A model generated the notes under the pieces. That model saw only the letters and a list, made by a program, of their open reading frames with translations, made no database searches and was not told the DNA's origin. A program made the translations under genes and the position numbers. A stretch of 63,999 nucleotides of DNA, counting the filler, from Stramenopiles sp. TOSAG23-6 (lineage: Eukaryota), in NCBI GenBank assembly GCA_900128565.1. It is 6 parts of 6 records of this genome, joined end to end, with 100 filler letters (N's around TTAATTAATTAA, not from the genome) between each part and the next. Parts side by side here need not be neighbours in the genome. Positions count along the whole stretch, not along the records: positions 1 to 10,745 come from LT636293.1; positions 10,846 to 21,589 come from LT636294.1; positions 21,690 to 32,427 come from LT636295.1; positions 32,528 to 43,181 come from LT636296.1; positions 43,282 to 53,922 come from LT636297.1; positions 54,023 to 63,999 come from LT636339.1. One strand, written 5' to 3'. This document shows, piece after piece, positions 1 through 58,515 of the stretch. Each line of letters opens with the position of its first letter. Within the stretch, counting starts at the first letter, position 1.

Positions 1-83
1 TTTTTTGTTTTTGTTTTTGTTTTTGTTAGGTACGAAATTTCGTATGAAAAAAAATAAATTCGAAATTGAAAAAAAAAACATAC
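1..83 (-). mobile_element. Introner-like intron 1 (5' part)
   Basis: at|GTATGT…TTCATACGAAATTTCGTACCTAAC; cut by window start. Confidence 0.8.
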
Positions 84-1135
84 ATAGCGGGTAACTTTGC
101 AACAAGAAAAACCAAAAGATAAATGCCGACTCTATTGCGGATAGTATTATGCCCTACTATGGATAATGACTTGGTGGATCTAAGAAGTTGATAGTATGTA
201 GTCATGGTAAATATGACTACAAACAATAAGGGAATATAGTAGCAAAATAACCGAAACATGTATTGTTCAAATGAAAAAAAATATTTTTTTTGTTAGGTAC
301 GAAATTTCGTACGAAAAAAAAAATTGAGATTAAAAACGTACATATCGTTTTTCCTCGTAATCCAACACCATGTTCCTCCCGCATATCCAAGAGCTCCACC
401 TGTCCATGAACCATCTTCTGCCAATGACGTTCCATATCCTCCCCAGAGTGAAAGACATAGAAAAAAAGTTGATAATCCCCAAACAATTCGATGATATTTT
501 GGTGAAGTATGAGATCCATGTTGAAGGGAAAGTCTATTATTAGCAAATCGTAATTCACAACGGATGTGATGTGCAAATACAGCTACCCAGAGAAATGCGC
601 CAACGCCAAAAAATTGCATCCAAGCTGCTGTAATATAACATATTGTTGTTGGGTCTTTTGCGTCAGATGTTCCATCTCCTAAAGTCATTAAAAATGCTAA
701 ACTGTGTAAAGCATCAGTCATTTGGAGAAACATGATTAAACGCGTTGCTAAACCTCCCCCATTTCGATTATTATGGTGAGACTTTGGTGAATGAAGGGGT
801 ATAGTTTGAATTAATTGTTCGTCGTTCGAGTTTAACGTAGCAGGTGCCGATTTTTCCAATTCTCTTTCTTCGTTCGGCGAAGCAATTGGATTAGTGGAGC
901 CTTGTGGGGTGCTATCGATAGATCGAAATGATCGTTGCACTGAGATTTCACTATCATCTTCATTTTCTGTAACTTCGCGTGGTGCTCTCTGAGAAGGTAG
1001 AATTAAAAAATAATATGTACATGTAATAAAGGCAGATGCAGATAACGATAATACCGCTCCAATAGCACTTACAATATGCAGTGTCAAGATCTGTTCTGAA
1101 TCGAAGTCGTCTTCTCTTACTTCAGTCGAATTCAT
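84..1135 (-). CDS. 7-TM GPCR, cAMP-receptor/Git3-like (3' end runs off the window)
   Basis: Exons 1135-342 and 257-84 join in frame (…KNDM|FRLF…). Hydrophobic helices, CY…A and WCWI motifs typical of CAR-like GPCRs. Confidence 0.75.
258..341 (-). mobile_element. Introner-like intron 2, GT-AT, 84 nt
   Basis: at|GTACGT…CCTAAC…AATACAT|g; restores frame. Confidence 0.85.
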
Positions 1136-1449
1136 CGCAAAGCGTATGAATCGCCGTGGAATTATANAGGCCGGTGTANAAGGTTACTGATGTTACAATA
1201 GCGTGTTCTTGGAAAGGTTTAAAAGTCTTGATAGTCAATCTTCAGAATCAACAATTGATTATAGATAATTATTACAATTTACTATTCATGACGATATCGG
1301 ATATGACCTGTTTGACATCAATCAATTTGATGATTGACAAAAAAAATGACGTTAAATTCTTAACTTAATATTTCGTGTTTGTTAGCGTATGAATTTACAC
1401 TATCGTCTTTATTTATTTTTATATGTAAAAAAAATATGAAATTNTTCAC

Positions 1450-4400
1450 TCAAGACCAAATTTCCGAATCTTGTAATCTCAAATCAGCATCCATAGTGCT
1501 GCAGTTATTAATGGCATACAATATCTTTTCATAAGCAGCATCAAAAGTTGTGTATGCAGGAAGTTTGATTGTAAAAAAGCAAGTTTGTGATCTAGGAAAA
1601 TATTCATTTGGGTTCTCTGAGGCACAATCATCTTTCATTGCTTGAATGATAAATGGATGATTCAATGAAGAAGTACTGTGAAGAAATATGTTTCAAGTAT
1701 GAAATTGATTAGGTACGATTTTTTTTTACGAAAAAAAAAAACGAAATTCATGATGAAAATATACAAACGTCAGACGGCATTCGACTACGAGCCCAAGCAA
1801 ACTGTAAGAATTGAACACGCTGTGCTGGACTGAAACGCCGTAAAACTTGCCATAAAAATATGACTTCCCTAGACTCTGTAGAAAGGCCATCTTCATACTT
1901 GGCACAAGCCGAGAGTAAATCCACATCCATGTATTGTAAAGAAATATTTTTTTTTTATTAAAAAAAATATTAGGTACAAAATTTCATATAAAAAAAAATT
2001 GAAATGAAATGAATGATATCAACGTACACGTCAGCAACTCCACAAATTAAGTCGCGCGCTTCGTCTGCAGTATAAAGCTTTAATAATCCTACAGGTACTG
2101 TCATGAGGATACCTGAGAGAACGGCACCCGTTTGAATTTGATTTTCATAACGACGAACTTTTTGAGCAAGAACTCGATATTGTTGTCTATTCGAAAGATT
2201 CACGGATTTCGATAACCCACCAGTGACAAGNGGAACATTTCGTTGATTCCCAGAACTTGANTTTACACAAAAATATGTATTGTGAAAAAATATTTGGTTT
2301 AAAAAATTGTTAGGTNTGAAATTTTCTTTTCTTTTGAAAAACAAATTTAGGTACAATATTCCTGATGAAAACGAAAAAACAAATTTAGGTACAATATTCC
2401 TGATGAAAACGTACTTGAAACAAGTTCTTCCAGTTCTGCCGAATTAGCAGCAGATGCAGTAGCAGATAAAATATCATCTAGTCCTTCATCAATCTGTCGT
2501 AAATTACTGATATCTTTATGTGATCTTTGATTACTATCATACGTCCCNACAAGATGTTCCCAAAAGTAATTAGGCAAATTTAAAGGAATTTGTACTCCAC
2601 AACGTAACGCAACACCAATGTATTGTGAAATTTTAAATTTTGTTTGAAAAAAAATCGTCAGGTACAAAATTTGGTACAAAAAAAACAAATTCGAAATTCA
2701 AAAAAATAAAACATGCATAAGCTGACCCAGAAAACGAAGAAGAGCAAGACGAAAAGGATCATTTGCAGAAGGCGATAATAAACGAATATGNTGCTCACCT
2801 CCACGTTTCATGTTTGCATTAGGTGATGGAACTAACAAATTCAAACAACCTCGATCCTGTAATTCTTCGACAATATCAGTGAAAATAGTCCTAAAAGGAC
2901 CTCCCTGGTCTACAACGCCNTCACCAAAGAGTTTGACGAAAAATGATCTTGGTTGAGGATTTTCTTTAGAACTCCAAGCTTGGCGTAATCCTGAATAGTT
3001 CTTTATATCACCAAGCGATGTCCATAATTGTCCAAACACAGAATATGTTGTGAAAAAATATTTCAGAAAAAATAATTTTTAGGTACAGAATTTCCTACGA
3101 AAAAAAACATAAATTTGAAATTCATCATGAAAACAAACATATTTAATTTCTGTAGCAAGCATGCTATTACTTCCAGGTGTTCCCATGTTGGCAAGATCTG
3201 CAGCCATTTTTCTATCTAAAGAAATTTCTTTAATTGTCATTGGTTTAGAATATTCATCCTCGGGTTCTGGTGTGGCAAGAATGGTACGTGTTTGACTTTC
3301 ATGCCAAGCTGAATGCTTTACAACTGGAAAGAGTAAATGTTTAGCACTAACAAGACCCGTATGACATCCCCATCCATTTTATGTGAAACATATTTGTTTT
3401 TTGGTTTTAAAAAAATTGTTAAGTACAGAATTTTTCTTATGAAAAAAATAAATAAATTTGAAATGATTCATGAAAACGTATATTTCTCATCAAATCACCA
3501 GCTGAAGATAATTTGATGCAATCTAAAGAACCACGAAGTAATACATTCAATTGTAATAAAACTGCCCAACGAAGTCCCGCGTCTCGGCGTCCATCCTCAA
3601 CTAAAACAGGTATATTTTGAGCTGCATTGTATATATCAATTACAGTTAATCCAAATTCACCTACGCGTACTTTGCAACCAGCGCTTTGAGATGCTCTGAT
3701 GAGAGCCTTGTCACGGGACACGGACCAAAATTTACCAAATGCACGTCTTTGAAATTTTTCGATGGACGCTATTCCAGGCACACGTACAATGGAAGGATTT
3801 GTATTTATATCTGTATTTGGAATTTTGTCGTTTGCTACTTTTGGTAGTGCTATCGAATCTGTGACACTGCGAAGTTTCGAACAAAGACTATAATCACGTA
3901 TTGTGAAAAAATATTTTAAAAAAAAATCGTTAGGTACGAAATTTCGTATGAAAAAAAATTAAATCAGAAATTCATATAAAACATACACTTAAATTGTCTG
4001 TTTCTTCACAGTAAAATGGCGATTCTTCAATCACAGTGACATTGGAACCATGAAGAAAGTCTCTTGGTAACATAGAAACCCCAGAAGTACCATCTTCTAA
4101 AATGACGAGGCGATCAATAGAGCCATTTCCAGGTGTTGAACTATTGAAGCTCACAGAACTGTCAATATGTATCCCTAATACTGTCCCTATTATAGTACGA
4201 TTTGCTGCACCATCATTCATCGAAATGTCACCTCCAATGACAGATGGTTCAGACACAACAGCAGGAATAGATATTTTACATCGAGGAAGCAATGAAACAT
4301 GATCTACTTCCATACCTCTAGATCCATCATGTATTGTGGGGAAATATGTTTACGCTTTGAAATTGGTTAGCGTTAATTTTAAAATGAATTTTAAAACGAA

Positions 4401-7400
4401 TCATGAAAACAACAAACTCACAAAAAAAGAAAATCGTTAGGTACAAAATTTCGTATGCAAAATAAATGATGAAAACGTACAACCTCAATTTCTAAAGCTG
4501 TCGTTGGTTCAGCTTGACCTTCTTTCGTTGGGTGTACTAAACCGTGAGATTGACGCCATCGTAACCATTGTTTGTACGCCTTTTCAACAAACTCAAAAGG
4601 AGGAACTCCACCTTTCACTAATGCGCGTGCAGTCGCAATAGCTAATGCAGTATTATAACACCTTTCCTNAACGAGAGGCCGTTCAACTGAAACTGACATA
4701 TCACACAATGTAATTCTATCTTCAACAACAGCAGCATCTGAGGAAAGACCAGTATTACTGCGACCACGTTGCATCATTCTTTGTTTATTACAACCACGGA
4801 AGTAAATAAATGGCCATAAACCTCTCGCGCTTGTCCTAAATCGATGCTCTGGAAAGGAAAATGCTCGACCTAAAGGTCGTCCATTACAAAAGTAAAATAT
4901 TTCACCTGCATCAGTATCCAATAATACACCTATCCTATCACCTGAACCGATAAAAGGACCATAAAAACTTTCTCTGCCCGAGGCGTCGATAGTAGCACGA
5001 AAACTAATCCAAGCCCATCGATATCCTTGAGGAAATTTATCCATAGACACACGCGGCAAACCTACGGTAACACCAATGAATAAAGATCCAGCACCTCGAG
5101 TAGTACTATCAACGATAAACTCCCAATAGTGTGAACCTCTAAGAAGTGGACGATCATGCAATGTGAAAAAAATCAAAAACAATAATTCGTCAGGTACAAA
5201 ACTTTCATACAAAAAAATATTAATAAAATTCATGACGAAAGCATACACCAATGAGAACGCAACCAGGTCCAGATGGGGCAGAGACAGATCGACCATCACT
5301 TGACATGCAAAGATTTGCACTACATCTTTGTGAATTGAGTTGATTTAGCTTTGATGTTGGTGAACATATTGACAAATCTCGCATGGTATTCAGCGCATCT
5401 GGAAAAGCTTTGAGGTTAAGTAACGATTTATGGTACGGATGATTAGGATCTTTCATTAGAGTATGAGATGGATGATACTCCTTGTGTAAAATATGCAAAA
5501 CCTTTGCAACACATCCGCGATTTTGATCTGAGCGAAGCAAATTATCTGTCGTGTTTTTTTTCTTTTGGGTATCATTTATCGTATCACTGGAAATATTATC
5601 TTTGTTCTCTTTGCCAATTTCTTTTGTTGACATTCGAACACTTCGTTTTGAAAAACTATTCACAGGAGCAGGAGGATGACTCAGTCGTAATAATGTAGCA
5701 TGCAAAGGCGATCTTTCACCTCCCCAACTTTCTCTAACAACACGAAGATTCATAAGCGCTGCAATTGATTGTGCACCTAAATTACGAACTTGTAAATCTG
5801 AATCGCCTGTAAAACTTGTCCCCGAAGCGAGACGTAGTACAGAATGACGCATAAGGTACAAACCTTGTTTATCTTCGTCATCTAATTCACTTCCCTCGTC
5901 TAAAGACTTACACGTAAACTTTATGTTAGACGCACGCACAACCGCATTAACGACATCTCCACTACTGAGATGTAATGCATTTACAGCACTTGAATGGGTC
6001 ACTTTGGCCTCCTGCATAACGATCTCTACATTAGATGATGTAATGTCTAAATCATTAATCCGGTTCTGATTATTCTTGGCCTCATTGATACATTTATTTT
6101 TTTTATTTCCATCGATAATTGTTTCTTCGCAACCTTGCTCATCATTATCGCTTGAACTACTCGAAATCCCATCAGACACAGCAGCAATATAATCCATGCG
6201 ATTTCTATTTGTATCATCAACTTTCGAAATTTTCGTATTCCGATCCGACCGTCGTTTTTTCTCTATTTCTACTAATTTTTGCTCATTTTTGAAATCTAAT
6301 TCGCCATCTTTCCAACACTGCATGCATACATCAAAATCACAACCCTGGGTACATCGAAAACTTGTTCCTGTAGAACCACAAATATCACAATAATTAGTTT
6401 GGCGTGGAGCGGATACCATGTTTGTGAAAAAATATATCATACAAAAAAATATCGTTAGGTACGGAATTTTTTTACGGAATAAAAAAAATAGGTAAAACAT
6501 TCGTTATGAAAATGTACATATTATGCATTTTGTTGCATTTGATACCCATATACGAAGATGAAGCAATCGATTCGCGACCTAATCGTTTCTTTGCNATTAT
6601 ACTTGTAATACACAATGCAAAACATAATTTTGCAGCAGATCGTCGCAGTGTCACATCCGCCCAATCTCCGCCACAGTCAATGACGAGATCAACACATTTT
6701 GATTCTATCGCTTGTAGGCGAGTGGGAATGATACAACTTCTTCCTGAATCGTCCAATAACGCTTCTGCTATAATTTGCATACCAATGGTAGCTAATTTTG
6801 GATGTAATCTAGCATTATAACACAACTTTTCGAAAATAATTTTAACACCTCCTCCCCGGGCGACAAGACTTGGCGCACATCGGTGTCTTCCCAAGAAAGC
6901 TTTGGCAGACTTAATTAGTTGATNATTCGTTTCAGATGAAAATAATTTCTGAAGCAACGGTCGAAAAAAGTCATTAGCATCCGGAAGGGNGGGCACTTTA
7001 ATTGTCTTCTCTTTCTTTTGTACATTTTCATTTGCGGCTTTGACTTTTAGAGTTTTCGTCTTTTTGATTTCGTTTTCCTTTTCAGTTGAAGCAACAACTT
7101 GTTTTTTTTGTTCTTTGCAATTTTCTGTAACATCGTTACTAACAGATTTTCTCTCGGTTTTTACTTCCTTATCATTAGATTCCTTAGACATAGCTATTTC
7201 ATTGTCCTTAGATTCCTTAGACAAAGCTATTTCCTTGTCCTTAGATTCATTAGACATGGATATTTCCTTGTCCTTAGATTCATTAGACATGGCTATTTCC
7301 TTGTCATTAGATTCATTAGACAAAGCAAGCGCCATTGCAAGCATTGCCTCTTCTTCTTCGTTCTCACTGTCTTCATTATCATCTTCAACTTGAAGGTTTT

Positions 7401-10400
7401 CGCTTTGAAGCTTGCTTTCAGCAGATTCATTCTTTGATACAGATTCGTTCGTTATAGGTATATTGCTGTGATCATCCGACTCTTGGGATAGTGCAAGGGC
7501 TTTAGCGAGCATTGCTTCTTCATCGTCACTTTCTTCATAATCCGACGTGCAATTAGATTCTACTTTATCAGTATCTTTAGATTCTACTTCATTACTATCT
7601 TTAGATTCTACTTCATTACTATCTTTAGAATCTACATCATTGCTATCTTTAGATTCTACTTCATTACTATCTTTAGATTCAGCCATTACGGCTGCCAATT
7701 GTGAAGCTAATTGCTGCGCAACAACGTCTGAGCTAAAATTATTCACGTAAGTGTCACCAGGGGATTGAGTTGTTGTCGAAATATTAGACAGAGCAGCGGG
7801 GGTCACATTGGTGGGAATGGATGAACATTCAGATACAGAGTCGCCATCTTCATCGTTTTTACTAACCAAATCTTCTTCACCTTTTTTTTCTAAAATATCT
7901 TCAGTCTCCGGATTATTATTATCATCACTATTTTGACCATTTCTTCCATTTTCTTCGCTTTCGTTTTCATCAGCAACATCGGGAAATATATCAAATCTAT
8001 CTCCATTGGCAAAGACAACATCATTCTCCATATTTTCGATGCTATCATCCTTACCATCGTCGTTACACTCTTCTTCAATTCGGCGTATGCATTCAATCAA
8101 GTCATATTGATTCAAACCAAGTGTACTGGGGGTATCATCATTTTCTATTTTGCTGCCATTGATGAAAAATCCTAATGATTCTGGGTCTTCACCAGCACGC
8201 CGCGCAAATACACGAAATACTTTAGACATTTTCGTTCGTTGGAGTACTTTGAAATGGGTTTCTTTTCCGTCAGCCGAATCAAGGACCCTAATTGTAATAC
8301 TATTACTTTGATTACTAATACGATTATTTCGATGTCCAATTCTAGAAGCCCCACCTTGATTCATTCCCAATAATTGCGCGATGTGTAGTTGTGCCATCTG
8401 AGCCATTAGACCTCCTCCACCTTCACCACTTTCCATATTTTCAAAAACAGACATTAAAGTCTCCCCATGTATTTTGGAAAAATATTTCAAAAAAATCTAA
8501 AAAGAATTGTTAGGTACAAAATTTCGTACGAAAAAAAAACTCGAATGTAAAAAAAAATAAAACCTACATCTATATTCCCTCGAAGTCTAGGAGGCATATT
8601 TATCGAATTACTAGCACCGCCAGCACCGACAAATTGGCGATGAAATATATTCAGTCTTCTATTCGTTTCTCTTCGATATGTTCTTGGTTGTGAGGAAGAT
8701 TTTAATTTTTTATTCGCATCTTCCGATTTTTTTTTCGCCTCTGCTTTCACATTGAGCTCTGTCTCACGGTCAAGAAATCTCCCAGATTGATAGGTTTCCA
8801 TTCCAACACAGTGCCAGGAATTATTAGACTTTGTTTTGGTACCCGAAGAGTTCATATATTGAAAACGAAATGTTCTAAATTCCTTTCCCGGTTGGACAAC
8901 AATTGAATTTGACAAACCAAAGCCAATTAATTGTTCTTTCGCCACAGTAAATATATTACTTTTTTCATAGTTATATTCAGGTTTATTACTAGGATCATTC
9001 TTGGATGAAACTAATTCGCTAATAAAACCAATCGAAACATCTGCAGTACATCCATCATTATGGTGTATAAATATTTGTGAATTGATGTATTGTGGAAAAA
9101 TAGTTCAAAAAAAAAAACTAAAATTTGTTAGGTACAAAATTTCGTAAGAAAAATAAATTCGTAATTGAAAAAAATTAAAACATACATACCAATTGTACCA
9201 GGACACATTTTTAATATTCCCTTATACGCAACATTGTCAAAAAAATGATGTGCTAAGTCACACCAATCAATTTTAGAAGAGACCTCAGTTAAAACCGAGG
9301 TGTTGTATTGGACAGGTGCTTCAGTTTTTATTAAACATTTTGAAGCACAAGCTAACAGTAACTCATTTCTTTCTTTCTTTAATTTCATAGAAGAAATCGC
9401 AAGCAAAAGCTCAAAAAGTGATTTTAAGTATGCAGAAGGAGGTTTTGGTCTCTCTTTACATCGTTGTTGCTCAAAACACATCCACAATCGTTCTTCACTC
9501 GGAAGAGATTTTGATATTTCTAAAAGACTCATCCCAATATTCTTTATATCAAGTACTTTCATATTATTTTCATGATCAGACATTGAATTGGTTTGTGCCA
9601 GATTCAACATATCGATTCCAGCATTTAACATTTGTGATATAAGTAAAAACACAGGCTCTTTTAAAGTCATATTAGACCTTTTAGTACAAATGACTAAAGT
9701 GTTACGCAAATCAATACTAGCGCTTACAGCATAAGCAGCTTTGAAACCAATACAATCTTTCTTCTGTGATAAGCATAATAAAGCATCAAGAATGCGTACA
9801 GCGAAGAAAACACGAGGTTCACCAACAGCTGACGCGTCACTTATACCATGCTTTCCAGATACTCGACTATTTGATCGATGTTTGTGTAAATCCCAAGAAC
9901 ATTTCTGATATTTTGGATGAACTGCCGCAAGGCGTAACATTGTGGTACATGTAGCAACTATCGATGGCCCTGCACCCAAAGCAACTAACGTAGGGAGAAT
10001 TCCTAGAGGGTCTTCATTATTTTGCACATAATTCGAATTCGTGTGGATCATCGTGGATACAGACCCAACCCTAGGAGTCATTATGATCGAAGAACGACAG
10101 AGTACAAGTCGTGCAAAAGTAGGTGTCCAAAGTGGTGCGCTTAATACGTCACGTAGACTTGAATTTACTTCGATATCATGAGCTTTTGGAAAAATATTTC
10201 AAAAAAAAATCGTTAGGTACAAAATTTCGTACGCAAAATAAATTCGAAATTGAAAAAAAATAAAACATACATGAGCTTTTGTAAGTCTCAGTATACCAGC
10301 AACAATTCGACGAGTGTGTATCGTAACTAAGGCTTCTTCTAACATACATAGAGCTTCGGATGCATACTCCAAAGAAAGTTTTTCTTCATCCCACCCAACA

Positions 10401-10691
10401 CCTAAACGAGAATTATCGCGTTGTTGGGCTAGATCAGGATTTTCCGAATCACTGTTTTGTTTGTTTTTTTTTGCCCCCGTTACAGCAGCGACAGCAACTG
10501 CAGTGACCAAATCCCATGCTTGTGCCGCGATGAAATTTGCATCTTTAGGGAAATATACATCTGCCATTGGAGCAAACGAACTTGCATTCCCCCTATCAAG
10601 TAAATTATCCTGAGATATTAAAGCAGATGTGTCCGTATATTGTAAACCCGATAAAAGATCCCCCAAAGTCTTCACTCTAAAGCGCTTCAGC
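1450..10691 (-). CDS. Giant HECT E3 ubiquitin ligase with SUMO-like, UIM, ZZ-like, UBA-like and SPRY domains (5' truncated)
   Basis: Exons 10691-10271, 10177-9186, 9084-8568, 8466-6518, 6417-5247, 5155-4481, 4328-3987, 3895-3482, 3375-3139, 3042-2717, 2617-2415, 2274-2028, 1928-1765, 1670-1450 form one frame. HECT motifs DQGGPFR, FLGQLIGVALR, PRSQTCFFTIKLPAY; SPRY GSHYWE…GDRIGVLLD. Confidence 0.88.
1671..1764 (-). mobile_element. Introner-like intron 3, GT-TT, 94 nt
   Basis: tt|GTATAT…CCTAAT…CAGTACTT|ct; gives DVSSLNHP. Confidence 0.82.
1929..2027 (-). mobile_element. Introner-like intron 4, GT-AT, 99 nt
   Basis: gt|GTACGT…AATACAT|g; gives CGVADVDVDLL. Confidence 0.85.
2275..2414 (-). mobile_element. 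Introner-like intron 5, GT-AT, 140 nt, internal duplication
   Basis: aa|GTACGT…AATACAT|at. Confidence 0.8.
2618..2716 (-). mobile_element. Introner-like intron 6, GC-AT, 99 nt
   Basis: at|GCATGT…CCTGAC…AATACAT|t; gives FLGQLIGVALR. Confidence 0.88.
3043..3138 (-). mobile_element. Introner-like intron 7, GT-AT, 96 nt
   Basis: at|GTTTGT…AACATAT|tct; gives KYSVFGQ. Confidence 0.82.
3376..3481 (-). mobile_element. Introner-like intron 8, AT-AT, 106 nt
   Basis: at|ATACGT…CTTAAC…ATAAAAT|gga. Confidence 0.75.
3896..3986 (-). mobile_element. Introner-like intron 9, GT-GT, 91 nt
   Basis: gt|GTATGT…CCTAAC…AATACGT|gat. Confidence 0.82.
4329..4480 (-). mobile_element. Introner-like intron 10, GT-AT, 152 nt, composite
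   Basis: tt|GTACGT…AATACAT|gat; two CTAAC motifs. Confidence 0.78.
5156..5246 (-). mobile_element. Introner-like intron 11, GT-AT, 91 nt
   Basis: gt|GTATGC…CCTGAC…TTGCAT|gat; gives SPRY VLIGDRP. Confidence 0.85.
6418..6517 (-). mobile_element. Introner-like intron 12, GT-AT, 100 nt
   Basis: at|GTACAT…CCTAAC…AAACAT|g. Confidence 0.82.
7140..7330 (-). repeat. 33-bp coding tandem repeat (SNESKDKEIAM-like)
   Basis: About 5 imperfect copies directly after a UIM-like motif in the HECT gene. Confidence 0.85.
7550..7682 (-). repeat. 24-bp coding tandem repeat (ESKDSNEV-like)
   Basis: About 5 copies of ttagattctacttcattactatct. Confidence 0.85.
8467..8567 (-). mobile_element. Introner-like intron 13, GT-AT, 101 nt
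   Basis: at|GTAGGT…CCTAAC…AATACAT|ggg. Confidence 0.85.
9085..9185 (-). mobile_element. Introner-like intron 14, GT-AT, 101 nt
   Basis: at|GTATGT…CCTAAC…AATACAT|c. Confidence 0.85.
10178..10270 (-). mobile_element. Introner-like intron 15, GT-AT, 93 nt, 11-bp flanking direct repeat
   Basis: caaaagctcat|GTATGT…CAAAAGCTCAT|gat. Confidence 0.82.
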
Positions 10692-10745
10692 ATGTATTTT
10701 GGAAAAATATTTCAAAAAAAAAATTGTTAGGTACAAAATTTCGTA
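10692..10745 (-). mobile_element. Introner-like intron 16 (3' part)
   Basis: …CCTAAC…AATACAT|g; contig ends inside. Confidence 0.8.
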
Positions 10746-11628: not shown

Positions 11629-11720
11629 GTATGTTTTATTTTTTTTCAATTTCGAATTCATTTTTCGTACGAAATTTTGTACCTAACGATTTTTTTTTGA
11701 AATATTTTTTCAAAATACAT
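11629..11720 (+). mobile_element. Introner-like intron 17, GT-AT, 92 nt, joins two different genes
   Basis: Consensus-like copy between gamma-tubulin and PI4K exons. Confidence 0.85.
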
Positions 11721-21689: not shown

Positions 21690-21758
21690 TTTTCGTACGA
21701 AATTTTGTACCTAACAAATTTAAGTTTTTTTTTTTTGAAATATTTTTACAAAATACAT
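21690..21758 (+). mobile_element. Introner-like intron 18 (3' part)
   Basis: TTCGTACGAA…CCTAAC…AATACAT|ctg; contig begins inside. Confidence 0.8.
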
Positions 21759-32427: not shown

Positions 32428-32527
32428 NNNNNNNNNNNNNNNNNNNNNNNNNNNNNNNNNNNNNNNNNNNNTTAATTAATTAANNNNNNNNNNNNNNNNN
32501 NNNNNNNNNNNNNNNNNNNNNNNNNNN
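32428..32527. other. Artificial contig linker
   Basis: TTAATTAATTAA at 32472-32483. Confidence 0.97.
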
Positions 32528-32581
32528 TACGAAATTTCGTATGAAAAAAAAATTTAAATTAGAAATTCATATAAAACATAC
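32528..32581 (-). mobile_element. Introner-like intron 23 (5' part)
   Basis: gt|GTATGT…; contig ends inside. Confidence 0.8.
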
Positions 32582-34004: not shown

Positions 34005-34343
34005 CTCAATTAAATATTATTCGTACTTAAAACTTTAAAAGTGTTAATTGCCTATGATATCACTTTATGCCGTGCTTTATCGGAAGTAGTAATATGCAAC
34101 CTTGTGTACGAAACGTGAACAACAAGGAAAAGCAAAGAATCGCGCTTAATACTATTTTGACTGACACGAAATCCGATTTTTTTTATCCGTTGAAGAAAAT
34201 TTACCGGAACTCAACTGTCGAAGATGAAACTTACTTTCTTCAGTTATTCTTATAAAATTCTCACGTCTCCGTTCTCTTCACTCAGAGTGTCTCCAGGGGG
34301 TACTACTGTACTAGGTATGGTATAAAGTGACACTCTTGTTGAA

Positions 34344-39604: not shown

Positions 39605-41699
39605 TTAGACAAACACTATTTTTTTCTTTGTTATGTTGACACTTGATTTTTTAGATGGCTCAGAGGATGACAAACTTGCCTTTGCAATTACAACAGATGG
39701 TTCCATCAATGGGTATGTATACTTTTCACTCATTACAGTAGATTCGGTATCAACATGGCCATTGCTAGCAATGTGTTTTTGTTTTGGTGAAAAACTTGCA
39801 ATTGATGATTTTGTAGTTTTCATCAACTCCTTCATTTGACGTTGCATTGTCTCACGCATATCCTTTAATTCGCGTTCTTTTTCTTCTTGTGTTTGCGGTC
39901 CTTTTTCATAATTTTCGGATGTATCTTCAGTAGAAGCTGAATGAGAGGCGTATTTATACGAAATACTATCATCTTCCCAAGGACTGACTAATGACGTTTC
40001 TCTATTTGATGTTTCATCTTTTCTTTGATTTTGTTGCTTTGATAGTATATTAGATTTTTTATGATGTTTAGGATCCCTACGACTTAGTTTTGTTTCAAGT
40101 TTGACTTTTGAAAACTCCTTTGTCTTTGTAGGCACATGCCTTGGAGACATTTCTGAAGCCTCAGCCCATTGCACTGATACATTTTTACCCATTGTCTCTT
40201 TCGATGATGAAACAATAGTTTTTGCTGTAGGTATTGTTCCTGTGGCTGAAGGTACAGTACCAAAGGATATACATCGATCTAAAAGTATTATTCGTGTTGG
40301 AAAAGTTGTACTTATTAAAACACGGAACACTCTTCCATGTATTCTGAGAAAATATGTCAATTTTTAAATTCGTTATGAATGAAAACGTTCAATTTGGTAC
40401 ACAAAATAAATAAATTTGAAATTAATAATGAAAACATACATATACAGAATGTGCATTTGATATCCAAGGAAAGTCATCAGCAGGGCTAATGACTTTCATA
40501 GCATTGTTGAACATTTGCACCTTTCTTTTTGGTAATTGTCTCTTTTTACTGAATTTACTATTTTTGACTATTCTTTTTTTTTGAGTTTGTACCTTATGAA
40601 AAATTAAAAATCCATCATCTTGACAGCATTGCAATTGACTGTACAACTTACTAGGTCTATGCGTCTCGCTTACATCTGTTACTGTAACAGAAAAACGCCA
40701 CGCATCTAATGGTCTTGGGTACTCTATTAAAACACGAACATGGTAGAATGCGGCATTATATTTCAATCTATAAGGTAATGAACTTCCTAGTAATTTCGTG
40801 GTAAATCCTGCATTTAGTTTTAATGTTTTATCACCATTGCCACCATCAGTAGAACTATTACTTGCTTGATTCACATGCCCTTTACCCCATCGTTTTGCTT
40901 TATGAGTATGCGCTCTATCAGGCATACCAGGTGTTGTTCTGTATACTTGAGTCACATTTTGTGAGTCATTTGATGAAGTAACTTTGGGAGGACTTTTATC
41001 ATCAATTTGACTAATGTTTTCGTGCTTTTTATTCGTATTTGAAGAAAAATCAACTCTTATTTTACTTGAATATTTTTGTCTTGTAGTTGCCGTTCTTGGT
41101 CTCCTACGTAAGTTTTGTGTCACTAGTTTTGGATTATTATAATATGGAACTCGTATTTTAGTCTGGCGTGGCATAGCACTAAATGGCCGGCGCTTTTGTC
41201 GTATTTTCACTTCATCTATAGCCGAGTCAAAAAGAGTTTCGTCATTCTGAGTTTCATCAATCTGAGATTGTATATCAAAAGTTTCCGTATTTTCTATCAT
41301 ATGCCTACTTAAAGGTGCACTTTGTGGACGACTATGTTTTACATTCCCATTCCGGTGATATTGACCTTTTTTTATTACGTGGCTTTCTTTTATACTTTTA
41401 CTACGATTTGTACTAGTGGATGAGTTCGTACTATTTTTACTACGATTTAAACGTCGAGGTATTGCACTACGAGGACGATTTTTCTTAGATGTAACAGTTT
41501 TGTTATTCATGTTCCTTTTACTATTTAATGGTGTATCTTCCCATGCTACTTGGGGTAAATACCTTTTTGTTGGAGCTAAGTTTATGCGCTGGCGATAACG
41601 ACGTTCTAATTCGATTTCTTTCTTATCTGCATTTTGGAAAGCTTGCTCGATCAACCTATAGCTCAAACGTCTTGCACTTTGTGGCCGTGATAATGACAT
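39605..41699 (-). CDS. Hypothetical basic protein with RP.SA motifs, two exons
   Basis: Exons 41699-40440 and 40336-39605 join in frame (…AHSVY|GRVF…). Confidence 0.7.
40337..40439 (-). mobile_element. Introner-like intron 26, GT-AT, 103 nt, diverged
   Basis: at|GTATGT…GTACCAAAT…AATACAT|gga. Confidence 0.8.
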
Positions 41700-43281: not shown

Positions 43282-43335
43282 GGTACAAAATTTCGTACGA
43301 AAAAAAAATCAAATTTGAAAAAAACTAAAACATAC
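43282..43335 (-). mobile_element. Introner-like intron 27 (5' part)
   Basis: at|GTATGT…TTCGTACGAA…; contig ends inside. Confidence 0.8.
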
Positions 43336-51704: not shown

Positions 51705-51736
51705 ATAAATTATACTCAAGATATTTTAATTTTTAG

Positions 51737-53867
51737 TCAACAAAACTCTTTCAATGCATTATCTCTCAGGGTACCCCTAGCTACTTTGCAAAATGTGTTG
51801 ACCAGGTCTTTAAAATGGGCCTTGATTTTTTTCGATTGTCTTTCAATTCTCGGATTGTAGTGCATATTATTCTGTCGGATTTGAATTTCTTCGCTTGCCA
51901 ACTTGTATACTGAAGTAAGAAATATTTCCCGTGCAGCTGGAGAAAGTTCCGTTTTCAGTATGAGATCATTCGGTTTACCACCAGATGCTTCTGTTGCAAT
52001 GGCTCTACACGCTGCGGCTAATGCATGTGAACTTAAAGCATCAAATAACCACTTCTTGTTCTCTTCAAAAAAACGCATGACAAAAGCCCATAAAAGATTT
52101 GCTAAATGCGGCCAAAGGTCATGTGGGCTCCGTACGGAAATTGCCATTATAAGAGATTGGGCCAGATTCTCGCCACATGATGGTGATTTTATAACTGCAC
52201 TTATAATGTGTGCGTACGGTTGTAATTTCTTTGTATGTAGTTTCATAGCTAATTCTAAAAAACCTATGTATTTTGGAAAAATATTTCAAAAAAAATCTAA
52301 AAAAAATTGTTAGGTACAAACTTTCGTACGAAAAAAAAATGAAATTTGAAAAAAAATAAAACATACATAACTTCTCGAGTTGCCATTTTTTCTTGATTTT
52401 GTATGAGAGCAGTTCCAAGTTGAAATAATTGGAGAAGTTTTCTAGGAAATTCATTCGGAGCATCAGTCGGGAGGACTGTAAATAAAGGTAATGGGCAAAA
52501 CATGAGAAAACGCTTTGACAAGTCAAATAATCCTAGTAACAAATCTGGATCTCGAAAATTCAGTGTACCATGTATTTTGGAAAAATATTTCAAAAAAAAA
52601 TCGTTAGGTACAAAATTTCGTNNNNNNNNNATAAATTCGAAATTGAAAAAAATTAAAACATACATTCGGTTGCTGAGCTCTCTGAAAAGTTTGCTTAATG
52701 ATAATATTTAGGACATTACCAAACGCTATTTGTGTTTCTTCGGTATCACTAAATAATTCGACAGCAACGGCTATACAATCCAAGCAAATTGGTAAATCTA
52801 AAGAAGAGTAAAAAGCAATTAAATGTTCCATTATTGTTGCAAGTTTATCTTTGACACAACTTCGTAATGAATGAAACATATTTTTGTATAAAAGACACAT
52901 TACACACGAAATCGCTATATTTTCTCTATATTTCACTGCAATGGTATTTAATAGATTCCAGCAACCTTTTTGTAGTATATGCAATAATGGAGATTCGCCT
53001 TTTTTTCTCTGTCGATTTGACATTTCTAAATATTGTACCATTGATGAAAACACTTCGAGTTCGTCTTTAACGATAATTTCGTCTTGATGTGTGTTTGTTT
53101 TCATTGCAACAGCAATTCTTTGTAATAAAGGCGAACAAATCACATCTAAACTTTCCGTAGAATGTTGTATAGACATCCCCGAGATGCACATTGCGATACC
53201 TTCTGATACAAATATTCGCATTTTTGTATGAGTGTGTGAATTACAAAATTTATTAAGACACCCAGCTAATGACACTACTACCGATGGTTTTGATATGTAA
53301 CCTCTGCAAGTTACACATAATTGTCGAATGGATTTCGCTGCAACCATTGACGACACAGGAACTTCTATGGCTTTAAGTAAGTACGTAAAAGCATGTTTGA
53401 TTAGATCAAGTTTTTTTGTCTTTCGTGATGCCAATAAAAACCACTTTGACATCATACCAAGTAATACTGAAACACTTCGAACTATAAGAGGATGTGATGA
53501 ATAAATATTTGAACCAGTATTGTTGATTTGAAGTACAAAGTCTCGTATTTTTCCATTAATCTGGTCAGTTGTAGTATTATTTTCTGCATTTGTTTTTACA
53601 GAACTAATAACTTCTTTTATAATACACGAAAGTACAAAAACACAAGATTCTGCTCGGTTCCAATGACTTACATCACACGCATTTGCAGTATTTAGAAGAT
53701 TATCTAGCATTCCAAGCTGTAAAATGTTGAACATTGATATTAGAACATCTTGACAACCTGGAGGGCCTATGCGGAAAGCTCCATCATCAACGTCAGGAAA
53801 TAAATCCTCCTCTTCAAAATCTATATCAAGAGTGAAACTTTCTTTAGCATCAAGAGAGCATTGAACT
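51737..53867 (-). CDS. Importin-beta-family HEAT protein, transportin-3/importin-13-like (5' truncated)
   Basis: Exons 53867-52664, 52569-52367, 52265-51737; W..AES.VF, AAKSIRQLC and DPDL motifs. Confidence 0.7.
52266..52366 (-). mobile_element. Introner-like intron 29, GT-AT, 101 nt
   Basis: Gives REVI|GFLE. Confidence 0.85.
52570..52663 (-). mobile_element. Introner-like intron 30, GT-AT, about 94 nt (contains Ns)
   Basis: Gives QQPN|GTLNFRDPD. Confidence 0.85.
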
Positions 53868-53922
53868 ATGTATTTTGGAAAAATATTTCAAAAAAAAACT
53901 AAAATTTGTTAGGTACAAAATT
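53868..53922 (-). mobile_element. Introner-like intron 31 (3' part)
   Basis: …CCTAAC…AATACAT|a; contig ends inside. Confidence 0.8.
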
Positions 53923-54022
53923 NNNNNNNNNNNNNNNNNNNNNNNNNNNNNNNNNNNNNNNNNNNNTTAATTAATTAANNNNNNNNNNNNNNNNNNNNNN
54001 NNNNNNNNNNNNNNNNNNNNNN
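53923..54022. other. Artificial contig linker
   Basis: TTAATTAATTAA at 53967-53978. Confidence 0.97.
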
Positions 54023-54116
54023 ATTTTGGAAAAATATTTCAAAAAAAAATCATTAGGTACAAAATTTCGTACGAAAAAAAAATCGATTTTTTTGTTAAAA
54101 AAAAAATAAAACATAC
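54023..54116 (-). mobile_element. Introner-like intron 32 (nearly complete, 3' end cut)
   Basis: tt|GTATGT…CCTAAT…CCAAAAT. Confidence 0.8.
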
Positions 54117-55957
54117 AAGCTGTCGACGTCCAGGTTGTTTTAGTCGAGGGCGGCAATACTTTTGCCCAGGTCGGCATAAAATTATTCCTGCAGCACCTGC
54201 TAGAGCTCCTATAAATTTTTGTTTTGTACTCATTTTTGAATGTAACTCAATAAAACTTCCAGAATTTGAATCATTATTCAGATGATTTGTTCCCATTAAA
54301 ATTTCTTTTGTCCTTTCATCAGCTATTCGTTTATTAGCCCAATAATTTTGAAATCTTTCCACGCCTGGTGGTTTCCCTGCTTCAAGATACGCTCTATCTG
54401 GTCTTTTTACACCTTGCATTTCTTGATATTGGCTCTCGTACATATATATTGTAAAAAAAAAAAAAAAAAAAACATTTGTTAGGTACAAAATTTCGTATGA
54501 AAACCAAAAAAAAAAATAAATTTGAAATTCATAATGAAAACGTACATGAGCAATATCTTTGAACCTAGGCTCAAATTGTTGCTTCACAAAAGACTGTACA
54601 GCATTTCTATTGGATTGCATTTCATTTTGTAGTCTTTGCTTTAAATTCTCAGAGTTATCAACGGTAAGCGAATAGTCAGTGAAATGGTTTTTCAATGATT
54701 GTATCGGTACTTTTTGTACAGATTCAATATTAAATGGATTAGGGTTAGGGTTATTATTTGTCATTGAATTTAGAGATTTCATTGATTCGTCTATTTCCAT
54801 ATATACATTACCAAGGTCATCGGTATCAACGTGTTTACTTGGATTCATATTGGCTTTCAATTCAATATAAGAATATCCTGGTCCTGGAATTGGGCTGTAT
54901 TGTCCTGCAGCCACTGGGACTCCACCTGCATACCCTCGAAAATATATATTTTGGAAAAATATTTCAAAAAAAAAAAAAAAAAAAATTGTTAGGTACAAAA
55001 TTTCGTACGGAAACAAAATTCGATTTTTTTGTAAAAAAAAAAATAAAACATACATGAGGCAGGACCCGGGTATCCTTGGGTCCATCTGGATGAATAATTT
55101 GGATATGCATCACTATAAAAATCACGCTGTGGAAATCCAATTTCTCTTTCAATTAATTCCATATTTAAAATACACGCAATACATTGAGCACTTGATGCAT
55201 TTGCGAGTTTTTCGAATTCTTTGTCAACCTCATAGTTTCTCTCATGTACTTCAGGTCCCCCTGGTGTCAAAAAATCTTTAGCTGATTTTCCAATAAGATT
55301 AACTAATGGAGTAAAAGCAGTTTTCACATCATTACCAGCCTTTTCCATCTTATCAACAATTCCGGTACTCTGTTGCTGAGCGTCTGGCTGAGCGTCTGGC
55401 TGACCGTCCGTGGTCGCAGCATTGTTCGTTTGGGACGTGCCGGACGTGCCGCCCGACGGGCTCGACACTGTTTGAGTACTTAGTAATTTTCTTTGAGTAG
55501 AGGAAATTTTGTTTGTAATCATATTTTTTGTTTCAGCTTTACCAAGTTGGTCGCGTTCATAGACTAAAGCTGTTGCAGCGTTTTTAATGAGTTTGGATAC
55601 TTTTTCAGTGTTATTGAATAAATCTATAGCATTATTTGCTTCCATGACCTTTACAGTATCTACTGCTGAGCCACCGATATCATGATTTTGTGCCAATGCG
55701 ACTTGCAAATGGACAATTTGACGCCGTTTTTCGTTTTCTTTGTCTGCAATTCTTTCCTCTTGTTGAATACGTTTGTTCAATTTCCCTCGCCAGGAGAGCA
55801 AACTCAATTCTGAAGGACTTTGCCTGTTCAACTCAGGATTTTCCATGTTTCGAATCAATCTCCCTCCGTTCCCCAAGAAAACATCGTCCTCTGAAGATAA
55901 TACTTTCGAGAAAAGGAATGAAAGTAATATGTATTGAAATCTCGTCACTGTTCTCAT
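54117..55957 (-). CDS. Secreted hypothetical protein (3' truncated)
   Basis: Exons 55957-55054, 54943-54546, 54443-54117 in frame; signal peptide; CIAC motif. Confidence 0.7.
54444..54545 (-). mobile_element. Introner-like intron 33, GT-AT, 102 nt
   Basis: at|GTACGT…CAATATAT|atg. Confidence 0.8.
54944..55053 (-). mobile_element. Introner-like intron 34, GT-AT, 110 nt
   Basis: at|GTATGT…AAATATAT|at. Confidence 0.8.
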
Positions 55958-56537
55958 TGTTTATTTCAATATACTTTCTTGAGTACTTGCAGTGGCAGTA
56001 CTAATGTAGTACTATCTGATTCAAAATTATCTAAACAACGATTGACTTATTAAGACTCGGCGTCTGAAGGTTAACAATGCAGTATGTGCGAGTTCTTGAT
56101 ATATAATTCAAAACCTTATGAAAATCATATATACACGACGCGCAATACCGCCAATACCGCATCAGTATTTTTGAAAAATATTTCAAATTATCGGGGATTT
56201 TTCTATTTTTTCTTTTTGTCTTTCGTGTGAATTTTTTTGACAAACCTGTTTTATAAACCTACTGTGAGAGAGAGTGAGAGAGAAATACATTTTATACAAA
56301 ATACTATAATTGATATTTTTATTCAATAAAGTGAGAGAGATATTTTTAGGATGATATTGTGATGATCAGATATAATGTCATGAATCATGATGATTATTTT
56401 TTCAAAACGGTAGAATAAAGTCATTGGGCCAAATATGATTTATCATAATATATAAAAAAAAGTAAAAAAAAAATATTTAATCTTAGTCATTGGTAGTGTT
56501 CTACGTATCTTTGGATTCCGTAGCATTATTTTGTACT

Positions 56538-58515
56538 TTAGTCATTGGGCCACATATGTATTGGACCTCGACCATTAACAAGCAACGGTAATCCACCTCC
56601 AGATAAATTATAATCTGTTCGGCCATTATTTCTAGCTCTAAACGGAATGTATCGTGAAATTAAAAAAAAAAAAAAATTATTAGGTATAAAATTTGGTACG
56701 AAAAAAAAATTAGATAAGAAATATTGAAAACGTACATGCCTAAAGCTGAAAATTTCTGCTTCAATCTGCCATCTGTGTTTTGAGGTTCTCCAAATATGGA
56801 ATCGCCAGGGCCTGAGGCATGTATTGTACGAAAATATTTTTGAAAAAAAATCGTTAGGTACGGAATTTCGTATGAAAACCAAAAAAAATAAATTTGAAAT
56901 TCATCATGAAAACGTACATACATATCGGAAGAACAAAGTATACAACACTGATCTTTTGTTGCTTCAATACCAAATGAAGTCCATTGTTGAGTGGCCAAGT
57001 CAAATAGTAATCCTTGATTTAATTTTTGCTCTTCATTTTGTTTTTCTTGAAATTTGGCTTTATTACCTAAATAATTTTCAGCACGAAATTTCATATCATT
57101 ATGATTAGTACTACTACTACTACTACTACTACTTTTCTCGAGGTAAGCTGATTGCATTATACGATAGCCATTTTCATCTGCCATTGGTGGCATTTTGAAG
57201 TGACTGTCCTTTAATGGCTTTGTTTCAGGAATAAATTGTGCGAAAATATTTTTTTTTTGTACATTCGTTAGGTTGAAAAATTTCATCGTAAAAAAAAATA
57301 AAAAAAAATCAAGTTTGAAAACACTTGAAAAAAAATCGTTAGGTACAAAATTTCGTACGAAAAAAAATAAATTTTGAAAACGTACATAAAAGCTTCAGGG
57401 CATATCGTACAACAACTAGGCTTTCGTAATGTTTTTAATTTTCTATCTTGACCAGCCATTGGACATCTTGGTTTTTCTGGATCTTTTGAAGTCCCTTGTG
57501 CCTTTAAATCGCTCTTTTCTTGTGCTTCAATTTTCTCCTGTTCACTCATTCCACTTTTTACTTTAATTTTTGTTGGCATATTTGCTCTATGAATCTTTGC
57601 AGTGTTATAAGTAGCGTAAGTAATATCTGTAGGTGGGAAAGCATCGGCACTACACATGGTACAACAAATTGAAGGAGAATTTTTTGCTACCTTTACTTTG
57701 TCTAGAACTAAAGGACACACCCAGGTTTTTTTTACTTTATCCCATTTTGGATATGCTTCTACACGTTTCGGTTTTTTTCCGGTCGTTTTTGATGTTTTTG
57801 ATGTTTTTGTCGTTTTTGTCGTTTTAAATCCTGTTTTAGTTGTTGTTGTTGTTGTTGCTGTTGTTTGAGCAGTCTTTGCTGTTTTAATATTTGTTTTAGA
57901 TGTTTCAATCTCTGTAAAACGCGGCGTTTCTCTTATTTCCATTGTACTATCGTGACTGCTCCCATCCAAGAATGATGTATGTCTCATCAAAATAGCATTA
58001 TCTTTATCATCTGTGCTTAAGTCAGAACTTCCGTTAATCATCGCATCGAAGTGTTTTTTATTATTTGAATCCTTTGAAATGTACCATTTACCAAAGTTAT
58101 TTAAAGTTTTGGTATGTAACTCGGAGGAAAGTTCAAGGGCAATTAATTGAGCATGAAATCGGTATGGACAAATTTGGCAACAGTTTTCTTTTCTTATTTC
58201 AAATGGGTTAAAACTTTTTTCCTTTCGAGCGCCTTCGTTAGTCGCACTTCCGTACTTTGAAATTGAATCCCAAGCATCCTTATCTAGTTTGCCTTTATGT
58301 ATTTTATTGTTCCATCTGATAAGTGTTTCGCCAGCAGATCTATCAGGCTCTATTTGCATCTTTAATGACTTGGTTCCGAGTGGAAGACGCGCTTGATACT
58401 CTCTTGGCAATTTGAACCTACCCGGTACTCCCGGTAAAAGCTTGTTTGATAATGTTTCCTGTGTTATGAACAGTTCAAGAAGACAAATACAAAAGAAATG
58501 TTTTACAAACGACAT
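56538..58515 (-). CDS. Secreted Cys-rich protein with four CCxxC motifs
   Basis: Exons 58515-57386, 57230-56918, 56818-56736, 56646-56538; CCQIC, CCTMC, CCTIC, CCILC. Confidence 0.72.
56647..56735 (-). mobile_element. Introner-like intron 35, GT-AT, 89 nt
   Basis: at|GTACGT…CCTAAT…GATACAT|t. Confidence 0.82.
56819..56917 (-). mobile_element. Introner-like intron 36, GT-AT, 99 nt
   Basis: at|GTACGT…CCTAAC…AATACAT|gcc. Confidence 0.85.
57231..57385 (-). mobile_element. Introner-like intron 37, GT-AT, 155 nt, composite
   Basis: at|GTACGT…CCTAAC…CCTAAC…AATTTAT|t. Confidence 0.78.

Follow-up and report, generated by a model that had tools for sequence, protein, structure and literature searches.

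A sense-strand intron family with U2-type donor and branch signals but no terminal AG in Stramenopiles sp. TOSAG23-6

A 63,999-nt stretch of the draft genome of Stramenopiles sp. TOSAG23-6 (GenBank assembly GCA_900128565.1), comprising parts of six records joined end to end and referred to here as the window, carries a family of short repeated elements that interrupt open reading frames (ORFs) and are numbered #1 to #37 along its length (Table 1). These elements very probably constitute a precise, sense-strand family of spliceosomal introns that lack the 3′ AG. It is likely that they are introners that bring a donor and a branch site of U2 type and are removed as GT..AT introns, and that the 3′ boundary of each is furnished by a 2-nt duplication of its target. 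Introners and non-canonical splicing are both already known; what is new here is a dominant intron family with canonical donor and branch signals but a non-AG end.

The element family and its splice signals

The consensus of the elements, which are ~90–155 nt long, can be written GTAYGTTTT ... TTTTGTACCTAAC ... T-run ... CA(C/A)AATACAT. The donor string GTAYGTTTT occurs 25 times in the window against 1.86 expected, a count reached in none of 100 shuffles, and TTTTGTACCTAAC with two mismatches or fewer occurs 38 times against 2.32 expected. A profile built from eight copies gave 43 matches. After merging, 37 element positions remain (− strand, 35; + strand, two), and each lies inside an ORF of its own strand; the 37 sense-strand elements reported in the first-pass annotation are thereby confirmed. 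Four extra + strand matches are palindromic cores within − strand copies. As in introner families, near-identical copies are spread over at least 12 unrelated genes. Twenty-eight copies are complete. The others are cut by contig breaks or by the start of the window, which leaves five with the 5′ part alone and four with the 3′ part alone; #36 and #37 together form a single composite intron. The element interior (e.g., 11664–11705) contains three short palindromes that are present in the consensus (TTCGAA, TTTCGTACGAAA and GAAATATTTC), and two subfamilies can be distinguished, GTATGTTTTATTTTTTTT... and GTACGTTTTCATNATGAATTTC.... The terminal inverted repeat is weak and extends over only 6 nt (ATGTAT/ATACAT). 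The sole element-like piece outside the ORFs is an intergenic sequence at 59900–59950 on the − strand, TTTTCGTACCTAATTCATACGAATTC, which looks like a rearranged element core.

Joint removal of GT...AT at the consensus ends yields continuous ORFs at all 28 complete, non-chimeric copies, so that the restoration of frame previously asserted for 29 such junctions holds. Thirteen introns are removed in this way from the HECT gene, leaving 2622 codons with no stop, two plus four from the DNA methylase (DNMT) gene, two from an exportin-like gene, and one, one, two and three from the genes designated G0, G26, G32 and G34, respectively. Boundaries as initially assigned were in frame in 19 of 29 cases, the misfits being the chimeric #17, four frame choices at short exons (#3, #4, #34 and #35) and five boundaries; those of #7, #11, #12, #33 and #37 were 1–5 nt off and were re-set by alignment to the consensus. 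The Pfam HECT profile continues across three junctions, with exon end and start positions of 101/111, 191/195 and 246/254. The step from 246 to 254 across #3 is spanned by exactly seven intervening residues, and #4 and #5 are continuous to within one profile position. At element #17 the assembly is chimeric (10916–12655, + strand): residues 1–235 of gamma-tubulin are connected through the repeat with a PI3/PI4-kinase-like gene, of which the C-terminal part is present. This element alone cannot be framed because the join is chimeric, a case that the earlier restriction to non-chimeric junctions had anticipated.

The donor and branch signals are of U2 type, as had been proposed. Among 33 donor ends, G+1, T+2, A+3 and T+6 are each present in 32 and G+5 in 31, and a branch-like ACC[TA][AG]A[CTA] or related motif, consistent with a yUnAy site accompanied by a pyrimidine run, is found in 28 of 28 copies. 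The distance from this motif to the intron end is 31–45 nt in 23 of the 28, with four odd copies at 18, 24, 56 and 108 nt. The 3′ end does not conform to the terminal YAG of U2-type introns, AG being present in only two of 32 ends (#21 and #24); 28 end in AT, one in GT (#9) and one in TT (#3), a distribution that reproduces, with two further AT ends, the earlier tally of AT 26 of 30, TT 1, GT 1 and AG 2. A−2 and T−1 are each found in 30 of 32 ends and a pyrimidine at −3 in 31, preceded by CA(C/A)AAT, and the site looks like a normal YAG site in which G has been replaced by T.

Splicing at the first AG past the branch signal would preserve the frame in eight of 28 copies, which is about chance, and two of these eight are the ACAG ends of #21 and #24. 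In eight copies an AG lies between the branch site and the intron end and must be bypassed; in #3 and #22 a CAG is found just 5 nt upstream of the boundary. Two spot checks made in the first-pass annotation, that nearby AGs are unusable at introns 3 and 6, stand: the AG 5 nt upstream of the #3 boundary shifts the frame, and the first AG of #6, located 23 nt downstream of its boundary, does so too. AG cannot be the acceptor signal of these elements, and the copies with AG at the terminal position show that both endings are tolerated.

The exon side of the boundary had been overlooked: the upstream exon also ends in AT and covaries with the intron end. T occupies exon position −1 in 32 of 33 copies and A position −2 in 25. 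AT is the final exon dinucleotide in 25 of 33, whereas its frequency in the coding strand is 0.089 (P about 4e-20). The last two bases of the intron match the last two of the exon, or form part of a longer match, in 21 of 28 copies. In the sole two copies with a base other than A at intron −2 (#3, T; #9, G) the same base is found at exon −2, a coincidence expected at ~0.01 by chance, and in #15 11 nt of the upstream exon are repeated at the intron end. The terminal AT is probably a 2-nt target-site duplication arising at (Y)AT|G sites. Other duplications were considered and rejected. A 3-nt duplication that includes the G of GT is not supported, since the downstream exon begins with G in only 17 of 32 cases and several near-consensus copies are followed by A, C or T, and for a Tc1/mariner-like TA duplication there is no register that places TA at both flanks.

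Taken together, these features suggest how the element may insert and be removed. The element (GTAYGT...ATAC) would insert at (Y)AT|G and duplicate the AT, supplying a donor and a branch site, with the 3′ boundary falling after the duplicated target dinucleotide; excision of the element plus one copy of AT would then return the original mRNA. Removal would be performed by the major (U2-type) spliceosome, with U1 and U6 reading GUAYGU and U2 reading UACCUAAC, and in the second step the exons would be joined after a YAU standing at the usual place of YAG while nearby AGs are ignored. Speculatively, A−2 may retain its usual contact with the branch adenosine, U−1 may pair with G+1 (A+1 in #8) in place of the usual G–G contact, and the CA(C/A)AAUAC immediately upstream may help to fix the site through recognition by a protein or small nuclear RNA (snRNA). 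We lean, by a little, toward the broader proposition that the major spliceosome of a free-living marine stramenopile lineage routinely completes splicing after A–U, at probably thousands of introner copies and skipping a CAG only 5 nt away, that the second-step rule has changed (e.g., by a G+1/U−1 contact or altered Prp8, Slu7, Prp18 or U2AF), and that a mobile element exploits this change via its own target duplication.

Elements were also sought beyond the window. In X3, a seawater DNA run, 4259 contigs fall on 54023–63999 and depth peaks over element positions, with a summed value of >10,000 at 57328–57367; this hints at very many environmental copies, although depth is not a copy number. 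An exact 20-mer of the element core had no match in public metagenome contigs. A gapped branch-to-end pattern matched 11 viral and 44 metagenome loci, none of which (0 of 55) fits the element profile at E ≤ 1e-3, and these 55 loci were discarded as chance matches rather than relatives of the element.

Transcripts, register and rival explanations

Evidence from RNA is available for the last record of the window. Record 2 of X10, a poly-A metatranscriptome run, is 430 letters long and covers 54546–54943, which corresponds to the base with the predicted exon between #33 and #32, and its 25 and 7 end letters match nothing on the adjacent intron DNA. Repeat masks lie at 54439–54482 and 54953–54995 and do not explain the ends of this record. 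A DNA contig, record 8 of X3, has six variants in common with the transcript and runs into intron #33 as far as 54952. The first-AG alternative for #33 would put the exon start at 54934, which the transcript does not use. Record 4 of X10 follows the exon to the #35 donor (56917, with one ambiguous G), after which 53 letters belong elsewhere. The transcript mapping that the first-pass annotation had put forward as the check on its claim lends that claim partial support, in the form of contig ends at predicted boundaries (#32, #33 and #35). Among the joints listed for 54023–63999, most of the table being taken up by DNA contigs joined from one repeat to another, none corresponds to a predicted intron.

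Since intron and exon share their last two bases in 21 of 28 copies, these copies do not formally fix the register of the introns: GT..AT, TG..CA and AT..AC registers all give an identical mRNA; an AG end is yielded by no register. The alternative considered in this respect is that the elements are AT-AC introns, ATGTAYGT...ATAC, cut 2 nt upstream on both sides to give the same mRNA. The prevalence of AT at the exon end would then be that of the intron start, A and C are found at intron −4 and −3 in 29 and 27 of 32 ends, respectively, and the AT-AC pair has a mechanistic precedent in that it works in both spliceosomes (PMC1557818). The 5′ AT would, however, be present in just 25 of 33 copies, the rest having GT, TT, CT or AA, and GTAYGT, at +3 to +8, would no longer be aligned for pairing with U1 and U6. 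The GT register is preferred because it places GTAYGT at the position that U1 and U6 expect and because its 5′ dinucleotide is constant, G+1 and T+2 each being found in 32 of 33 copies. It is also preferred because the terminal AT outlasts the preceding AC, which has decayed in the diverged copies #7, #8, #11, #15, #32, #33 and #37, and because #4 then reads D-V-D-V, compared with M in the AT-AC register. HECT domains usually have an aliphatic residue at the position of the #4 junction. The AT-AC reading also does not fit the U12 donor [G/A]TATCCTT or the U12 branch distance of about 10–26 nt, compared with the 31–45 nt seen here, and is considered unlikely. A U12-type (minor) intron is unlikely on similar grounds, given G at +5 in 31 and T at +6 in 32 of 33 donors and the presence of ACCTAAC 31–45 nt from the end in 23 of 28 copies, not TTCCTTRAC at about 10–26 nt.

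Two further explanations dispense with unusual splicing and are both very improbable. Under the first, the elements are excised from DNA, as are the internal eliminated sequences of ciliates, which are bounded by TA and leave one copy of the repeat after removal; here, too, a short direct repeat (AT) is left once on removal, which is compatible with such a process. Against it, 37 of 37 copies lie in the sense strand, an orientation that excision from DNA does not require, donor and branch motifs are present in them, and the genes are readable in the standard genetic code. The first-pass annotation had named genomic excision as a finding that would overturn its claim; this outcome is disfavored by bulk DNA metagenome contigs, which contain the elements, by X3 record 8, which enters #33, and by the DNA runs, in which 0.52–0.95 of the words sampled from a region containing #28 and #29 are present. 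The second invokes ordinary GT-AG splicing at nearby AGs, the AT boundaries being a by-product of repeat alignment, and we give it scarcely any credence. An in-frame AG is available besides the consensus end in six copies (#7, #13, #14, #32, #33 and #34), and the use of the one upstream of the #13 boundary would add 10 codons with no stop. Nevertheless, the first AG breaks the frame in 20 of 28 copies, the upstream AG of #14 introduces a stop, the X10 contig at #33 contains 9 nt that would be lost with the AG boundary, and the HECT profile across #3 is continuous with the TT boundary only.

A different rival concerns the origin of the copies. Spread could have proceeded through RNA, by reverse splicing into mRNAs followed by reverse transcription and recombination, and not as a DNA transposon, with the exonic AT reflecting a site preference of the spliceosome. 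The copies are in the sense orientation only, and no antisense or intergenic element copies were seen in the window. They are also clumped among genes (chi-square P about 2e-5): 14 copies lie in the HECT gene (1465–10692) and seven in the methylase gene (30307–34016), and none is found in three long genes at 12772–20559 (7.8 kb), 25258–30057 (4.8 kb) and 34326–39584 (5.3 kb). Within HECT, G32 and G34 the copies are denser toward the 3′ part. The weakness of the 6-nt terminal inverted repeat and the lack of any transposase seen among the genes of the window point in the same direction. Reverse splicing gives no duplication, yet #3 and #9 match exon −2 and #15 repeats 11 nt, and the orientation is also explained if antisense copies, which could not be spliced out, are selected against where the genome has little non-coding DNA. 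RNA-mediated spread is regarded as doubtful, if less so than the AT-AC alternative, but is a serious rival as to the origin; it would leave the splice-site finding unchanged.

Several observations weigh against the preferred interpretation of target-duplicating introners removed as GT..AT introns. A plain DNA transposon predicts antisense and intergenic copies and does not predict the clumping described above, and the formal openness of the register applies to three-quarters of the complete copies (21 of 28). The 2-nt duplication is absent from four of the six complete-ended copies with a base other than A at exon −2 (#4, #10, #11 and #25), and these four look older. How the end is found is not captured by any simple rule: scanning after the branch site for the first AT, AG, CAT, YAK or ACAK is correct at best in 16 of 28 copies (the first CAT in 14, the first ACA[TG] in 16). 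No stable end-joining fold was detected, the mean z of −0.53 being no better than that of shuffles, and the ends are paired (at least three end pairs) in the lowest-energy fold of only 10 of 28 copies. The AT ending of the five diverged copies whose boundaries were re-set is partly the analyst's choice. Support from RNA consists of two contigs whose ends coincide with predicted boundaries, both from run X10 and from a population that differs by about 2% from the window; in runs X6 and X8 no junction of 54023–63999 has usable coverage. An Rfam scan of the window detected a tRNA alone, and neither snRNA nor splicing-factor genes were found there. Finally, AT as the acceptor rule of the genome is an extrapolation from one repeat family. 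The claim that an AT acceptor is the norm of the organism is therefore sustained insofar as the end is non-AG and AG alternatives fail, and is left short of the whole genome by the single family and its two AG copies; the 64-kb window offered no intron outside the element family for comparison.

Pairing between the two ends of the element, AUGUAU with AUACAU (6 bp), was also evaluated as a means of finding the 3′ site and was rejected, as it is seen in ~1/3 of lowest-energy folds and the C/T difference between subfamilies at donor +4 is unmatched at −6.

Genes of the window and source lineage

The window is AT-rich (GC 0.33–0.40) and dense in genes that are readable with the standard code, together with one tRNA-Val. 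It derives from a draft assembly in which N...TTAATTAATTAA...N linkers join contigs at six places, and five of the six contig breaks adjoin a copy of the repeat element. Sampled words of 44100–54000 are present at 0.52–0.95 in DNA runs (one organism plus seawater metagenomes) and at up to 0.15 in seawater metatranscriptomes. The coordinates of the elements and genes are collected in Table 1.

Table 1. Elements #1 to #37 and principal genes of the window; for complete elements the remarks give the first six and the last intron bases.
Feature	Position	Strand	Remarks
Element #1	1..83	−	5′ part, cut by window start; donor GTATGT at 83
Element #2	258..341	−	GTACGT..ACAT; phase 2; 7TM-like gene
Element #3	1671..1764	−	GTATAT..ACTT; exon ends TT; frame-shifting CAG 5 nt upstream of boundary
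Element #4	1929..2027	−	GTACGT..ACAT; in HECT domain
Element #5	2275..2414	−	GTACGT..ACAT; internal duplication
Element #6	2618..2716	−	GCATGT..ACAT; splits FLGQL|I|GVALR
Element #7	3043..3138	−	GTTTGT..ATAT; diverged
Element #8	3376..3481	−	ATACGT..AAAT; A at +1; two in-frame boundary solutions 3 nt apart
Element #9	3896..3986	−	GTATGT..ACGT; exon ends GT
Element #10	4329..4480	−	GTACGT..ACAT; extra internal sequence; exon ends TT
Element #11	5156..5246	−	GTATGC..GCAT; directly before SPRY domain (VLIG|DRP)
Element #12	6418..6517	−	GTACAT..ACAT
Element #13	8467..8567	−	GTAGGT..ACAT; in-frame AG 30 nt upstream
Element #14	9085..9185	−	GTATGT..ACAT; upstream AG would introduce stop codon
Element #15	10178..10270	−	GTATGT..GCTCAT; final 11 nt = end of upstream exon
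Element #16	10692..10745	−	3′ part (..AAAATACAT); 5′ part lost at contig break
Element #17	11629..11720	+	chimeric join; gamma-tubulin contains the donor half, and a PI3/PI4-kinase domain follows the acceptor half
Element #18	21690..21758	+	3′ part; before exon of EF-hand/kinase gene
Element #19	30592..30690	−	GTATGT..ACAT; DNA methylase gene (QGVPDTH|VF)
Element #20	31364..31463	−	GTATGT..ACAT
Element #21	31619..31717	−	GTATGT..ACAG; AG at same position
Element #22	32299..32406	−	GTACGT..CACAGTACAT; frame-shifting CAG 5 nt upstream
Element #23	32528..32581	−	5′ part; exon ends GT
Element #24	32771..32873	−	GTACGT..ACAG
Element #25	33216..33314	−	GTATGT..ACAT; exon ends CT
Element #26	40337..40439	−	GTATGT..ACAT; diverged interior
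Element #27	43282..43335	−	5′ part
Element #28	52266..52366	−	GTATGT..ACAT
Element #29	52570..52663	−	GTATGT..ACAT
Element #30	53868..53922	−	3′ part
Element #31	54023..54116	−	5′ part; exon ends TT
Element #32	54444..54545	−	GTACGT..ATAT; RNA contig stops at donor (54546)
Element #33	54944..55053	−	GTATGT..ATAT; RNA contig starts 54943; DNA contig continues to 54952
Element #34	56647..56735	−	GTACGT..ACAT
Element #35	56819..56917	−	GTACGT..ACAT; RNA contig leaves DNA at donor (56917, plus 1 ambiguous G)
Elements #36 + #37	57231..57385	−	composite intron; two branch-like motifs; GTACGT..TTAT
HECT/SPRY ubiquitin ligase gene	1465..10692		2622 codons after intron removal; Pfam
C5 DNA methylase (DNMT) gene	30307..34016		with elements #19–#25
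Gamma-tubulin residues 1–235			upstream of element #17; E about 3e-121 vs human TUBG1
PI3/PI4-kinase domain			downstream of element #17
Long ORFs without interruption			Rpn1; WW-domain protein, 2595 aa; EF-hand kinase; Sel1/PAN protein

The closest gamma-tubulin models in the protein collection searched are EukProt entries with 94, 92 and 85% identity, the top label containing 'MAST3', and brown-algal proteins follow at 80% identity. Since the gamma-tubulin is nearest to a MAST3-labelled entry, we read the source organism as a marine stramenopile that would lie near MAST-3 and appears to have a compact, intron-poor, AT-rich genome. Transcript-derived proteins that span the junctions were sought by comparing an exon of the HECT gene with longer proteins and an exon of G32 with proteins of near length, and neither comparison gave a match; a protein atlas gave no usable match to an 853-aa ORF of the window.

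Some further features of the window were observed. Telomere-repeat-like words (GGTTTAGGGTT / AAACCCTAACCCTA) are located at ~41830–41860 and 44040–44080, immediately upstream of G26 and Rpn1, where they may represent a promoter motif. The genes at 59095–59844 and 60152–60874 are Cys-rich paralogues with no Pfam matches; the former is covered by RNA contigs from two runs and has no intron, and at 59545 a 21-nt in-frame insertion variant (a Gly-rich tandem repeat) is found in one DNA metagenome contig.

Significance and comparison with known systems

The AG at the intron end is among the most constant signals of eukaryotic genes, and structural models credit it with specific contacts in the second step of splicing. 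If the interpretation advanced here is true, the element family provides a natural test of such second-step models, because its donor and branch site are canonical, about 90% of copies have U as the last base and neighboring CAGs are skipped, and it also represents a new route by which a mobile element can become an intron. Gene finders that demand AG will mis-model genomes of this kind, and such families would escape introner surveys that start from annotated introns. One public model of the gamma-tubulin, P0009, is identical to the window in the aligned blocks and has conserved stretches missing at five places (e.g., IPWGPAS and VSGLMIANHTSI), and may be an example of AG-based mis-modelling. 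At the #17 junction it reads VATV-I-TTTL, compared with V(S/A)T(V/I)-MA(A/T)S-TTTL in five relatives, and we infer that an AG located 9 nt downstream, within an AGY Ser codon, was forced on the annotation there; the other gaps would be explained if several further introns of the gamma-tubulin gene were mis-modelled.

In an introner family of Chrysochromulina sp., the element carries the 5′ splice site and the 3′ splice site comes from the target-site duplication (PMC9860276). The two families share a short, non-autonomous, sense-strand repeat present in many genes, a donor located in the element and exact restoration of the mRNA, but the Chrysochromulina family has a 4-bp duplication and canonical sites (PMC9860276), whereas the proposed duplication here is a 2-nt AT and the end is non-AG in 30 of 32 cases. 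Amoebophrya likewise is a marine protist with repeated introns that include introner elements and with direct repeats that overlap the intron boundaries, and the majority of its introns are not GT-AG (PMC7789003). Its introns have no conserved terminal dinucleotide, however, and inverted repeats of 8–20 nt form hairpins that join the ends (PMC7789003); the present elements show strong conservation of GTAYGT and of the branch motif, the last base alone departs, and no end-joining fold is predicted. A non-conventional intron of the euglenid or Amoebophrya type was rejected for the elements, the 5′ border being constant and no stable helix being predicted. In Physarum polycephalum, thousands of U12-type introns were acquired with transposon-like ends and a short duplicated target (bioRxiv 10.1101/2020.10.12.336362). 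Mass intron gain, transposon-like termini and a short target duplication would be common to both systems, although the Physarum donor is [G/A]TATC[C/T]TT with the branch site 10–12 nt from the end (bioRxiv 10.1101/2020.10.12.336362), compared with GTAYGTTTT and 31–45 nt here.

No description of a dominant GT-AT class was found in the literature searched on introners with non-canonical splicing, GT-AT introns, single-cell genomes of uncultured stramenopiles or MAST-3/MAST-4 introns; a related family may be listed among the introner families tabulated in PMC9860276 and PMC12130899. Two accounts of uncultured marine stramenopile genomes make no mention of unusual splice sites in their passages on introns and splicing (PMC5778133; bioRxiv 10.64898/2026.04.17.719054). 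Introner surveys are built on annotated introns, and families with 'unfamiliar' splice sites were checked by hand.

GT-AT introns are known from animals, where one U2-type example (DGCR2) and seven U12-type examples have been described and the minor spliceosome tolerates the pair (PMC1557818). The terminal dinucleotides are the same as those of the elements, but the animal cases are isolated among hundreds of thousands of introns (PMC1557818), whereas GT..AT is here the sole intron class seen in 64 kb. Near-complete escape from GT/AG has been described in some tunicates, where, as proposed for the elements, the major spliceosome handles non-AG ends genome-wide, a capacity tied to changed U2AF and snRNA features. 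The intron termini of these tunicates are diverse and mostly non-GT at the 5′ end. Unlike these, the 5′ end of the element is canonical and the 3′ G alone has been replaced.

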